The position numbers were made by a program, and so were the translations under genes. From a virus (taxonomy: Duplodnaviria > Heunggongvirae > Uroviricota > Caudoviricetes), in IMG/VR virus record IMGVR_UViG_2718218168_000001, positions 32,001-96,000 of that record: a DNA stretch of 64,000 nucleotides; one strand, given 5' to 3'. The notes beneath the pieces are model-generated. The model did no database searches and was not told the origin of the DNA. It saw only the letters and a list, made by a program, of their open reading frames with translations. Every line of letters begins with the position of its first letter. Within the stretch, counting starts at the first letter, position 1. Below, in pieces: positions 27,305 through 30,582 of this stretch.

Positions 27305-30300
27305 ATACCCAAAACGTCATGAGCTACACCTCGAGTGTCCCCCTTACAAGACACAGAACGTCTGGCAAAAAGAGGTTCCACTCTGAAGCCACTGTCATGA
27401 TAAAGCTCTCTGATGTTTGGCGCGCCACTGTTAGTAATGAGAACCTTTGCACCTCGACGATGAGCATCCGTCAACAGAGACACCAGGCGTTTTTGCTCTT
27501 CAAACTTAAAGTCATGACCGGAATAGTTCGTGAATCCCTCTGTATTTGGAAGCGGTTCATACGGCGGATCGCAAAAGATGACATCTCCTTCTCCGGCAGC
27601 TTCAATCACCGCTGCAAAATCACCGCATACAAACTCAGACCGCCCTTCCGCACCGAGGAAGGCTTCCATCTCCTGTAATGGGAAATACGGAGTTTTATAC
27701 TTCCCATAACCGACATTGAACTCACCGGCCTGGTTGTAACGCGTCAATCCGTTAAAACAATGTCGGTTCAGGAACAAAAACGCCGCTGCGCGATGTAAAT
27801 CATCATAGACTTGTTTGTTAAACGCATTCCGTACTGCCAGGTATCCTTCCTGTGTGTTGTAGTCCTGGAAGAAACGATGTGCCAGAGTGATAAGTGAATG
27901 CGCCTCGCGTTGCAGAGTCTTGTAAAAGTTAATCAGGTCAGCATTCACATCATTTAGCAGATTTTCCTGGTATCCGGCATTCATGAAGACAGCTCCGCCA
28001 CCAACGAAAGGTTCAATCAGGCGCTTCCCTTCTGGCAAATAGCGAAAGATTTGTTCCAGAACACCAAATTTTCCACCAGCCCATTTGAATATGGACCGTT
28101 CGAATTCTGTCGCTGGTTTAACTTTTCGCTCTTTTGTTTCACTTCCTTCTTTCTGCCGACATACGGCCTTAGTAATCCGATCGCCAATCCAGCGCATTAC
28201 TGGTATTGCCATACTATTGCCGATCGCTTTGTAACGCGGTCCGTCAGCTGCAAGCATCGCGGCCTCTTCTTCGCTTAAATCTGGATAGTGATTGCGGAGA
28301 TATGCCAGTTCATCTGAATTAACTTTTTTACGCTTTTCCGTCGGGATCAACGTATGCCCATCAGGAAAACCTTGCAGCCTTTCACATTCGACAGGGGTAA
28401 GACGGCGGACAGCTACTTCTGCGTTTCTTACTTCATAGCAAACAGCTGTTGGATTTTTAGCCATTAGAGATGGTGAAGTATTCTTAGTTGCAGCATGTTG
28501 TGTACCGCTCATACGCTCAGGAAAAGCCAATGTAACAAGATGCTCATGGCTTTCTTGCTCACGTGCCCGCAATGTACCATGCCCTTCTGACCAAAAACCT
28601 GCTCCTGTGCTGCTAAAAACGGCAAGGTCAGTGGCATCTTTAAAATCTCTTGCCTTTACTGTCGATGCGGTTTCATCGTCAATATATTCCCCAAATGCCG
28701 CCATCCTGAAACCGTTTACGGCTTTCGTCGATTTCATACCGGGAGACATGCCAGCGTGTAGGCATGGATTTAGGCTTTCGCCACTGATTGCAGCGCCATT
28801 TGCAATAATGGCGGAAGCGATTTCCTTCTTTTTTCGGCTCGGCGCAATATTCCGGCGCACGCCTTCGAACTCAAAAAGTACCGTTGCGGGATCGAGGTCT
28901 GTTCGAGCACTTGCGACAACAAACACGCGTCGGCGTCGTTGTGCCACTCCGAAGTATTGGGCATCAAGGATTCTCCAGGCCACCTTTCGCTGCGGTCCAT
29001 AAATACAACCACACTGCGGCCACTTTGGAACATGGCAACCGGTTTTGCCATCCCACCGCCAGAACGCGTTGCTTTTTCCTGATTCAGGTCGATCACCTGG
29101 TTCAAATGGCACATCTTCTCCAGCCAATCCGGCAAGGAAACATCCGAAGGCGTTATCTGCCAATGACAAGACTCCTGGGACATTTTCCCAGACGATAACG
29201 GCTGGTTTGAGAAATGACTCAGCCCGTTTGTCGTCAATTGCATTTGCAAGCTCCACATACTTTAAAGTTAGCGCGCCACGCTCATCATCAAGCCCACCAC
29301 GTAATCCCGCGATACTGAATGCCTGACAGTTATGGACCACCGCACCATTGAGGATATAGGAATGATCACCTTCGACTTCTATGTTGTATACAGTATCTAG
29401 GCCTACCGATTTAAACTCTTTGACTGTTCGTAAAAGCATTCCATGAGCCAATCTTGATTTACGTGACAATTTCTGCGGGCAGATTGTTACCTGATAATAA
29501 TCCCGTTGATTTACCACGCGATCCTCGATCACTTTTTTGGGCTCAACTTCAATAAAGCTGACCGAAGAAACATAACCACAAGTCTGTGACAACCCCGCAA
29601 CGCCCCAAGCAAGCGCAGGACTAACACTATTAATTCTAAATCCCGCTTTACCACTTGGTGTCCCATCAGTATCAAGATAGCCTTGTAAAAACACATGACG
29701 CAATGGATGCGACATCACCCATGCAGGGATACGTTTAGCATGGCTTAACTCGCCAAAATGTTCATTAAGCCAATTGGCATAACACGTATCATTCAAGGTT
29801 ACTTTGATGCTCCCTCGGATTTCGCTTGCCACGGAAAACATGTTTTCTGGTATGTGGCAATGAAACTTTCTCAATTTCTGGCAATTTATGCCAAAAACAA
29901 CCGCCTTCTTAGATTTACCTCTCCATCTCCTAATATATCCATCGCCTACATAAGCGCCCGCAAGATACATAGCCTGTTCTTCAGACAAGAACCGAGAACA
30001 AATATCTGGAGATGCAATATTGAAATTAGTTAGAGCGCACCATTGATATCCCGGCATATCACATGCTGCTCGCCATTCCGGTTCAGACAACAACTCTCTC
30101 TTAAAATATGTGCCATTTTTCCGGGTGTTTTGGGCTTTCCACCGAACAGCCAGGAAGGGATGGTCATTGGTTGTTCTTATACCTAAAGGCTGCCCAACGG
30201 CATTAAGTAACCCCGTATTAGCTATTTTTGAACCAACTCTTTTTACTTGTTGTAACCGCCCGAGATGACTGACTACGTAATCGCCAGGGCAAACATCTTC

Positions 30301-30582
30301 TATTGGTTTATAACCATTTTTACAAAGAACCATATGCCCCGCGGTAAAACATGGTGTTCCCCCGACGAGCACGTCAGGGGATTCGATTTCCCCAGCCAAG
30401 ACTTTTTTGGCAAGTTTTGTCATGTCGCCAAGGTTGGCGACATGGGGCCAGCGGAGCGCAAGAACGGCAGATGGAAAAGGCTCGATTTCAGCAAACCACG
30501 CCGGACGCATACCCAACGGTTCCCAGGCAATACTCGCGGCTTCAATTCCACTGCAAACAGATCCGTAGCACAGCTCTTTCAC
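27295..30582 (-). CDS. dmt: Bifunctional DNA methyltransferase (N-terminal C5-cytosine MTase + C-terminal Dam-like N6-adenine MTase), intein-containing precursor
   Basis: 1095 aa. C5 motifs: [12 protein letters not shown] (split by intein), [42 protein letters not shown]. Dam-like: KWAGGK, DPPY. 754 aa after removing 341. Confidence 0.85.
29329..30351 (-). mobile_element. Intein with LAGLIDADG homing-endonuclease domain in the C5-MTase catalytic motif
   Basis: Begins Cys (CFTAGHMVL), block [17 protein letters not shown] and [11 protein letters not shown], ends [21 protein letters not shown] then +1 Cys; 341 aa. Confidence 0.8.

Follow-up and report, generated by a model that had tools for sequence, protein, structure and literature searches.

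The interrupted dmt gene

Why does the dmt gene of a P1-like phage-plasmid encode 1095 residues when its counterpart in phage P1 encodes 754, and what does the additional segment mean for the methylase and for the element that carries it? The question is raised by the window, a stretch of 64,000 nucleotides (positions 32,001 to 96,000 of IMG/VR virus record IMGVR_UViG_2718218168_000001), in whose ORF listing the dmt precursor occupies 27295..30582 on the minus strand, the strand of all features located below, with a GTG start and 1095 codons plus stop. The reading put forward here, and held with high confidence, is that the gene specifies an N-extein, an intein and a C-extein, the intein being of class 1 with a nested LAGLIDADG homing endonuclease and lying between Pro77 and the catalytic cysteine of the C5-methyltransferase.

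The locus is a punavirus (P1-like) dmt region, with a protein that combines a C5 and a Dam methyltransferase, the uhr-hrdC-dmt operon, a C1 operator and a P1-like genome. The rdgC-like hrdC gene (30579..31484) lies upstream of dmt in the same operon and its stop codon overlaps the dmt start. Upstream of uhr-hrdC-dmt there is a homologue of the promoter Pdmt in the region 31804..31849 (-35 element at 31828..31833, -10 element at 31804..31809) and a homologue of Odmt, the operator of the C1 repressor (31833..31849), which has one mismatch to the annotated P1 record; operator and promoter are both conserved with the annotated Odmt and Pdmt of P1. The dmt gene of phage RCS47 is 99% identical to that of the window, and an identical copy of the window's Dmt protein is already encoded on 190 public contigs. 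Database product names omit the intein, the protein being labelled just 'Dam family methyltransferase'.

The N-extein (residues 1-77, 30352..30582) contains the C5-methyltransferase from motif I into motif IV, of which it carries the first half (...VLVGGTP). The C-extein (residues 419-1095, 27298..29328) opens with CQAFSIAG (29305..29328), the second half of motif IV, and continues with the remainder of the C5-methyltransferase, including ENV of motif VI (29173..29190), QRRRR of motif VIII (QxRxR; 28921..28941) and GNS of motif X (28198..28227). Motifs I, IV (PCQ), VI, VIII and X are intact and in order across the two exteins. Beyond them follows a Dam-type N6-adenine methyltransferase domain (residues 828-1091, 27310..28101; PF02086 E 2e-56, TIGR00571 248.8 bits) with its DPPY motif at 27559..27570; it forms a C-terminal domain of its own, uninterrupted by the intein. 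The documented role of Dmt is Dam-type methylation of GATC, which is required for packaging at the pac site (PMC12707154), and the P1 record's own annotation describes the C5 activity as 'perhaps at C5 cytosine'; the name of anti-restriction methylase that the sequence-only reading gave to Dmt goes beyond this evidence.

The insertion is precise. Aligned to P1 Dmt (AAQ14041.1, 754 aa; AF234172, 2265 nt), which is the same protein as the exteins, collinear and encoded in the same operon behind the same C1-controlled promoter region, the precursor shows one gap of exactly 341 residues at GTP/CQAFS with flanks that are about 98% identical. The clean colinear insertion and the 754-residue extein length anticipated from the sequence were thereby both recovered. 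Unlike the window's gene, reference P1 is intein-less and carries a G74W change in motif IV. When the intein is removed in silico, PF00145 makes a single contiguous match (residues 8-134) over the junction and scores 127.2 instead of 103.5 bits (E 1.2e-36 for the spliced N-terminal part). M.HhaI can be aligned gap-free with the spliced sequence through ...PCQAFS..., so that the +1 cysteine falls on the catalytic one. The expectation that excision recreates motif IV holds in this respect, and Cys419, the first residue of the C-extein, would thus serve both as the catalytic cysteine of motif IV and as the +1 splice nucleophile.

Architecture of the intein

The intein occupies 29329..30351 (341 aa, precursor residues 78-418) and consists of a HINT splicing domain into which a LAGLIDADG homing-endonuclease domain is nested; motifs and coordinates agree exactly with those first read from the sequence. 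Block A (CFTAGHMVL, intein residues 1-9, 30325..30351) begins with Cys1, the first nucleophile (codon 30349..30351), and block B (TTNDHPF, intein residues 60-66, 30154..30174) supplies the TxxH residues Thr61 and His64. The first LAGLIDADG motif (intein residues 129-140, 29932..29967, including LAGAYVGDG) and the second (intein residues 221-231, 29659..29691, including LQGYLDTDG) retain their acidic residues, Asp137 and Asp229. Blocks F and G (intein residues 321-341, 29329..29391) end in VVHN, with a penultimate histidine and the terminal Asn341.

In the family alignment C1, F2, A4, G5, T61, H64, D137, G138 and N341 are invariant, D229 is found in at least 90% of sequences and G230 in all of them. 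The class 1 splicing residues C1, T61, H64, N341 and C+1 are all present and are invariant or nearly so across the family. The segment accordingly has the class 1 features of Cys1, TxxH, an HN/C terminus, a predicted HINT fold and a clean in-frame insertion. Two alternatives, a bacterial intein-like (BIL) domain and a generic Hint insertion, are ruled out by the HN/C terminus, the conserved catalytic site and the endonuclease domain.

Profile searches give matches above cutoff to Pfam LAGLIDADG_3 (E 2.4e-8, 34.5 bits against a cutoff of 22.5, covering intein residues 221-282), Pfam Hint_2 (28.5 bits, cutoff 28.4) and NCBIfam intein_Cterm, TIGR01443 (25.9-28.9 bits, cutoff 15.6), and the C-terminus aligns with that of the Spl DnaX mini-intein. 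From an alignment of 19 sequences AlphaFold2 gave a model with a mean pLDDT of 93.9 and a pTM of 0.90, which is preferred to a single-sequence model (pLDDT 30.6). The best Foldseek matches of this model in the PDB are PI-SceI (E 8e-17), TliVMA, PhoVMA, PI-PfuI and PI-PkoII, and the Prp8 and DnaB inteins also match the predicted HINT fold. The endonuclease part is modelled at high confidence, matches I-SceI, I-AniI, I-OnuI and the endonuclease domains of PI-SceI and PI-PfuI in Foldseek, and in its predicted structure fits a pseudo-dimeric alpha-beta-beta-alpha-beta-beta-alpha arrangement. Motifs, profiles and model together bear out the original proposal of a canonical LAGLIDADG intein at the C5 catalytic cysteine.

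Relatives of the dmt intein

The structural relatives around PI-SceI (the Sce VMA1 intein), TliVMA, PhoVMA, PI-PfuI and PI-PkoII share with the dmt intein a HINT domain split by a LAGLIDADG endonuclease as well as Cys1, TxxH, HN and Cys+1. Foldseek relates the model to this group at E 8e-17 to 1e-8 with TM scores of 0.5-0.63, and for PI-PkoII there is a weak sequence match too. They differ in that identity is just 11-16% and that the dmt intein has 341 aa against their 360-540. Moreover, their hosts are V-ATPase, RNR and DNA polymerase, whereas the host here is a C5 DNA methyltransferase of an enterobacterial phage-plasmid.

Closer relatives, 28-55% identical over their full length, are inserted at the same P/C site in C5-methyltransferases from numerous bacteria and viral contigs. 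They include inteins of Mannheimia haemolytica (P0012), Metarhizobium album (L018), Lachnospiraceae and actinobacteria and of phage and giant-virus contigs in IMG/VR, inserted at GGxP/CQxxSxAG or SPE/CTNHS with the same block structure and about 330-350 aa; some are mini-inteins (P0025, 141 aa) and some are decayed (P0012, P0026). The P1-like copy is distinct in lying in a bifunctional C5 and Dam protein, and beyond Escherichia, Salmonella and Shigella its nearest relatives reach just about 50-55% identity. Inteins that share one insertion site are intein alleles by the usual definition, and the P1-like intein is therefore an allele of the motif IV P/C family. It is an ordinary member of a widespread intein family, and constitutes no new type of element or mechanism.

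The literature search returned no publication that names or characterises a C5-methyltransferase P/C intein family and no description of the P1-like dmt intein, on which the RCS47 paper (PMC4249366) and Gilcrease and Casjens 2018, both outside its coverage, may remark. Two further papers (PMC12282955, PMC11437467) mention inteins in unrelated contexts only, and methyltransferases go unmentioned in the main text of Novikova et al. (2016). The published systems that come nearest are the DNMT-1/2 inteins of mycobacteriophages (Kelley et al. 2016, PMC5050341) and the Dorothy_75 family inteins of actinobacteriophage methylases (Gosselin et al. 2023, PMC9957025). Like the dmt intein these combine homing endonucleases with orphan phage DNA methylases, a patchy distribution and signs of transfer between diverged exteins, but their exteins are N6_N4_Mtase rather than C5 enzymes, their insertion site is another one and their hosts are actinobacterial.

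Distribution among P1-like elements

The same 1023-nt intein, 98.5-100% identical and with an intact ORF, is carried by the phages RCS47 and vB_EcoM-Ro157c2YLVW and by a laboratory P1 isolate (OP279344). In PLSDB it is found in about 130 of 496 P1-like plasmids (~26%), and 125 of the 132 matches cover at least 80% of its length; the full-coverage rows among the matches listed (n=28) are each a single ungapped 1023-nt match of 98.5-100% identity. The bearers span E. coli, E. albertii, E. fergusonii, Salmonella and Shigella, and among complete E. coli genomes the intein is present in 151 of 5426 (~3%), one of which has two copies. The suspicion that the locus records an unusual invasion by a mobile element is not sustained by these numbers: the dmt intein is not a rare or one-off invasion.

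The site is empty in 361 of the 496 P1-like plasmids (~73%), and many of the empty sites nearly match the flanks of intein-bearing genes (97% over 102 nt). Very efficient homing might have filled such sites; rare co-residence of two elements can also explain them.

The sampled intein alleles have an intact ORF in nine of nine cases, with neither frameshifts nor deletions, and their pooled pN/pS of 0.27, from only 26 variable sites, places the ORF under purifying selection. The intein occurs in two target-recognition-domain types of dmt, with genes of 3288 nt and 3042 nt, and both types also occur without it (2265 and 2019 nt).

Predicted splicing and its bearing on methylase activity

From its residues and fold the intein would be expected to splice by the class 1 route. 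The C1-repressed promoter would allow the 1095-aa precursor to be made when the repressor is absent, i.e. on infection or induction. An N-S acyl shift at Cys78, aided by Thr61 and His64 of block B, would then be followed by transfer of the thioester to Cys419 (+1). Cyclisation of Asn418, aided by the penultimate His417, would free the intein, and an S-N shift would leave an ordinary peptide bond in ...GGTP-CQAFS.... Two products are predicted: Dmt of 754 aa, its motif IV intact, and the 341-aa endonuclease as a free protein. The earlier statement that methylase activity depends on splicing is accordingly to be divided between the two domains: it is possible for the N-terminal C5 domain, whose activity should require splicing, while the Dam domain is uninterrupted and is probably independent of it.

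It could be supposed instead that the intein is dead for splicing and has knocked out the C5 half, in which case the precursor would serve as a Dam methylase only and C5 methylation would be dispensable. The Dam-type function documented for Dmt (PMC12707154) and the 'perhaps' with which the P1 record grades C5 activity fit such a view, as does G74W in motif IV of reference P1, which suggests that the C5 domain may be weakly selected in some lines; decay is moreover seen in relatives elsewhere, with a C-extein cut short in Mannheimia and a remnant of an intein in Rodentibacter. In the P1-like gene, however, none of the residues on which the four splicing steps rely is missing and all are conserved, the C5 motifs I, IV, VI, VIII and X of the exteins are intact, and the intact ORF and low pN/pS persist on plasmids from all five host groups, whereas an unselected, non-splicing insert of 341 aa would be expected to gather indels. 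Loss of splicing appears very improbable.

A further proposal would make the intein a conditional switch, co-opted by its host, through which splicing and hence C5 methylation of phage DNA respond to, for example, redox state via Cys1, Cys+1 or other cysteines. The insertion falls exactly at the catalytic cysteine, both nucleophiles are cysteines and the intein is retained at appreciable frequency, while some mycobacterial DnaB inteins are reported to be conditional and conditional splicing is described for other inteins at catalytic sites in two publications (PMC6195587, PMC7360933). Against this, the sequence data hold no specific sign of regulation, selfish inteins in general favour conserved catalytic sites, and the polymorphism for presence and absence within one dmt type argues for an intein that its host can do without. 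Co-option as a switch appears very improbable.

Signs of mobility

The homing part of the mechanism would operate when two P1-like elements share a cell: the endonuclease would cut an intein-less dmt and the intein-bearing copy would template the repair. The predicted endonuclease target in intein-less dmt is approximately GTCGGGGGAACACCT/TGTCAGGCATTCAG, in which the slash marks the insertion point that it spans; intein-less sites read TGGGGTACGCCT/TGTCAG in the P1-reference type and GGGGGAACACCT/TGTCAG in the L004 type.

Several features of the flanks are of the kind that homing could leave behind. Mean pairwise identity is 99.2% for the intein compared with 95.7% for the 231-nt N-extein (minimum 90.5%), values taken from an aligned comparison, the ungapped version being misleading owing to indels. 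Nucleotide -1 is A in all 11 intein-bearing alleles and T in all six intein-less ones. Further signs of mobility are the presence and absence of the intein in both dmt types, the relatives at one P/C site in many taxa and viral contigs, and the E. coli genome with two copies. In one intein lineage five of the six differences from the nearest intein-less allele sit no more than 16 nt from the intein and all are synonymous (binomial P ~9e-6 for a window picked post hoc, in a sample of 11 intein-bearing and six intein-less alleles). Such junction-adjacent blocks of synonymous differences suggest past homing, although general recombination among P1-like elements could also be the source of the flanking-haplotype pattern. 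In the composition profile GC content dips mildly from about 47-53% in the flanks to about 43-45% within the intein, which lends weak support to a foreign origin and is not relied on.

It is conceivable, if doubtful, that splicing works while the endonuclease is inactive, the intein being kept by vertical descent and ordinary homologous recombination in a late phase of the homing cycle. The 361 empty sites, with many near-identical to intein-bearing flanks, speak for this, and the intein-bearing alleles form just two closely related lineages, separated by four fixed nucleotide differences, that fit one or two ancient invasions; the mosaicism of N-extein and target-recognition regions is likewise expected from the recombination typical of P1-like elements. 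On the other side, both catalytic aspartates and both LAGLIDADG helices are intact in a confidently modelled endonuclease domain and the sampled alleles are without frameshifts or deletions. Nonsynonymous to synonymous changes number 6/5 in the endonuclease part against 8/7 in the splicing part, that is without enrichment, and the cluster of synonymous differences in the 16 nt beside the junction resembles a co-conversion tract. Active homing at the present day among P1-like phage-plasmids in E. coli, Salmonella and Shigella, together with splicing that gates the C5 activity of Dmt, is offered only tentatively, in distinction to the class 1 intein with its nested endonuclease, which is considered well founded.

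Implications for P1 and its relatives

Work on inteins relies on E. coli as its standard 'intein-free' host, and P1 is a classic model phage. Nonetheless, about 3% of complete E. coli genomes carry a canonical and apparently intact intein with its homing endonuclease, as does at least one laboratory stock of P1. Annotation ought to record the intein and to give mature Dmt as 754 aa, the length expected from splicing, and the length variants of dmt among phage-plasmids differ in whether a mobile element is present and are not separate genes. P1-like elements may need splicing for their C5-methylation phenotype. Crosses of P1 offer a very tractable way to measure intein homing and co-conversion, which makes the P1-like dmt intein a useful model. 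If active homing and gating of C5 activity are true, E. coli and P1 would provide a natural and genetically tractable system for the study of homing and conditional splicing, and there would be a large undescribed family of phage and giant-virus inteins whose target is the catalytic cysteine of C5-methyltransferases.

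The dmt intein and its insertion site

The dmt gene of the window (27295..30582, minus strand) encodes a 1095 aa precursor with a GTG start that is interrupted by a 341 aa LAGLIDADG intein (residues 78-418; 29329..30351, minus strand). Pfam searches divide its C5 cytosine methylase domain into three stretches (E 1.9e-29) with LAGLIDADG_3 and Hint_2 domains lying between them, and assign residues 834-1066 to a D12-class Dam methyltransferase domain (E 2e-56); the NCBIfam model for the intein C-terminal splicing region, TIGR01443, also scores over its cutoff. The gene is flanked by hrdC/rdgC upstream and ban/dnaB downstream, and the surrounding window, which is 98.8-99.7% identical to the E. 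coli plasmid NZ_CP150020, is by sequence a P1-like phage-plasmid. The dmt genes of phages RCS47 and vB_EcoM-Ro157c2YLVW match over the full length with 99.4% and 99.1% identity, respectively, and reference P1 dmt aligns to just 69% of the gene length, as two pieces.

Alignment with the 754 aa P1 Dmt (AAQ14041) is broken just once, where exactly 341 residues (78-418) have no counterpart in P1, bordered by ...VLV(G/W)GTP and CQAFSIAG..., and at the DNA level the spliced gene equals P1 dmt in length (2265 nt) with 39 substitutions. A clean insertion and a remainder of P1 Dmt length, both claimed in the sequence-only reading, are thus borne out, and the motifs that it listed all lie where it had placed them. 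Excision also restores the C5-methyltransferase motif IV as it had proposed: the spliced N-terminal part gives one PF00145 match (residues 8-134, 127.2 bits) that runs unbroken through the junction, and it aligns without gaps to M.HhaI. Cys81, the catalytic nucleophile of M.HhaI, aligns to the intein +1 Cys, so that +1 residue and methylase catalytic Cys are one and the same. Codon 74 of Dmt (window equivalent 30361..30363) encodes Trp in reference P1 (AF234172) and Gly in every other allele examined (VWGTPCQ versus VGGTPCQ); the Trp alters the conserved GG of motif IV and may leave the laboratory P1 that was sequenced with an impaired C5 domain.

Homologs of the intein reside within other C5-methyltransferases, some 48-52% identical and others approximately 30%. 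The aligned homologs share block A (CF.AG), block B (T..H), two LAGLIDADG motifs (..GDG and ..DG) and blocks F and G (V[YF]N..V..D.S[YF] ... HN), and all are inserted between ...P and C(Q/T)..S. An AlphaFold2 model built from the homolog alignment (mean pLDDT 93.9, pTM 0.90) has as its best PDB matches PI-SceI, the TliVMA and PhoVMA inteins, PI-PfuI and PI-PkoII, followed by free-standing LAGLIDADG enzymes and mini-inteins. By its sequence, its family and its predicted fold, the LAGLIDADG intein is real and correctly diagnosed, and it is of an ordinary kind.

Proposed splicing and expression

The precursor would follow standard class 1 splicing, in which an N-S shift at Cys78 is followed by transfer to Cys419, cyclisation of Asn418 and a final S-N shift. 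This would release the 754 aa Dmt and a 341 aa LAGLIDADG endonuclease that is predicted to target empty dmt alleles. It had been suggested that methylase activity depends on splicing. As the Dam domain is separate and uninterrupted, this can apply to the C5 half only, where we infer such a dependence, and Dam is probably independent of splicing. Upstream of uhr-hrdC-dmt the window retains the -35 and -10 hexamers of Pdmt, which are the same as in P1, and the counterpart of the P1 C1 operator Odmt (31833..31849, minus strand; ATTGCCCTAATAAATAT versus ATTGCTCTAATAAATAT in P1, one mismatch). If the gene behaves as in P1, precursor and endonuclease would be made once C1 repression is lifted, which may coincide with the presence of a second P1-like genome in the cell.

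Distribution among P1-like elements

The sequence-only reading, which called inteins rare in enterobacterial genomes, had suggested a mobile-element invasion of the gene; by its distribution the intein is common and nothing exceptional. The 1023 nt sequence occurs in 132 PLSDB plasmids (117 Escherichia, 14 Salmonella and 1 Shigella), with at least 80% coverage in 125 of them, and among the matches listed, 28 at full coverage are single ungapped 1023 nt pieces with 98.5-100% identity. A 600 nt probe spanning the empty junction matches 496 PLSDB plasmids, 361 uninterrupted and about 130 broken exactly at position 231/232, so that the intein is present in about 26% of P1-like plasmids. It is likewise found in 151 of 5426 complete E. 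coli genomes, one of which has two copies; 147 copies are on plasmids and five on chromosomes (for example NZ_CP007392.1, 2209482..2210504, match H169), the latter presumably in integrated P1-like elements.

The intein also turns up in OP279344, a P1 isolate from the laboratory (del res del mod, host MG1655 Z1), whose dmt has a different target-recognition region. At this locus (L002, OP279344.1, 61684..64725) it is paired with the short variant of that region, which sets the isolate apart from the two Lobocka reference P1 sequences, and dmt is therefore not uniform among laboratory P1 stocks. A protein identical to the window Dmt precursor is encoded on 190 public contigs and is named 'Dam family site-specific DNA-(adenine-N6)-methyltransferase' on every one. 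Automated annotation catches the intein in part, with fragments titled 'Hint domain-containing protein' and a Mannheimia homolog whose UniRef name starts 'DOD-type homing endonuclease'.

Allele variation and possible mobility

The intein ORF is kept in nine of nine sampled alleles, with 26 variable sites and a pooled pN/pS of 0.27. Intein-positive dmt exists in two target-recognition types (3288 and 3042 nt), both of which also occur intein-less, at 2265 and 2019 nt respectively; intein-less genes of 2589 nt form a third length. These length classes, at least three and represented by loci L002, L004, L006, L011, L012 and L014, differ in the presumed target-recognition region between C5 motifs VIII and IX (window ~28150..28850); judging from this, P1-like elements may carry C5-methylases of differing specificity, irrespective of the intein. 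Insertion sequences have damaged two intein-positive genes: the Dam domain of NZ_CP100503.1 (L009) is cut short by an IS200/IS605-family element, and an IS91-family element has removed the N-extein and first intein residues in NZ_CP057105.1 (L010).

Across eight intein-positive loci the mean pairwise identity is 99.2% for the intein (minimum 98.5%), 97.9% for the first 500 nt of the C-extein (96.4%), 95.7% for the 231 nt N-extein (90.5%) and 92.7% for the region containing the target-recognition domain (85.0%). Nucleotide -1 is A (CCA) in all 11 intein-positive alleles and T (CCT) in all six intein-less ones, and none of 364 intein-less PLSDB junctions is more than 97.1% identical to the intein-positive flanks over 102 nt. 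The intein-positive flanks fall into two haplotypes, ...GTC GGG GGA ACA CCA and ...GTG GGA GGG ACA CCA, which both encode VGGTP and go together with four fixed differences within the intein. Five of the six differences between the second haplotype and its nearest intein-less allele fall within the 16 nt adjoining the intein (binomial P ~9e-6, for a small sample and a window picked after viewing the data). Such clustering is what co-conversion tracts of homing would leave, although general recombination could also have produced the flank pattern.

A wider family at motif IV

A search of one genome per species recovered full-length relatives at the same motif IV site in Metarhizobium, Mesorhizobium, Gemmiger, Lachnospira, Acetatifactor and other Clostridia, Vampirovibrio, Chloroflexia, Alloprevotella, Arthrobacter and Kitasatospora; remoter matches occupy other exteins such as ribonucleotide reductase. 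More than 271 IMG/VR viral contigs encode relatives, and 40 of 51 inspected lie at the ...P|C(Q/T)xxS motif IV site, giant-virus MAGs included; relatives from these MAGs (L141, L143, L145, L147, L151 and others) are ~28-31% identical and interrupt C5-methyltransferases at the P|C motif. Also at the motif IV site are a 141 aa mini-intein without endonuclease (P0025) and a Rodentibacter methylase ORF starting within an intein remnant (P0026). A Mannheimia haemolytica copy at this site (P0012/L115), seen on 578 contigs, has a C-extein that breaks off directly after CQ. Taken together, the three resemble the homing cycle caught at different stages. A 26% identical intein in a Flexilinea sp. MAG (L060, JAFRIR010000042.1, 3001..4029; flanks ...ALWENV|C...HN|CGAFSS) appears to follow motif VI (ENV), which would, if true, be a second insertion site within C5-methyltransferases.

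DNA methylases of actinobacteriophages harbour inteins, but their exteins are of the N6/N4 type (PMC5050341; PMC9957025), whereas the extein here is a C5-methyltransferase. Within a literature collection that takes in few subscription journals, no description turned up of an intein in P1 dmt or at the C5-methyltransferase catalytic Cys, and the dmt intein is apparently undescribed so far. On the sequence comparisons, it is one allele of a widespread, virus-rich family targeting this Cys. It introduces no new mechanism, and its value lies in annotation and in a tractable E. coli/P1 model of homing and splicing.
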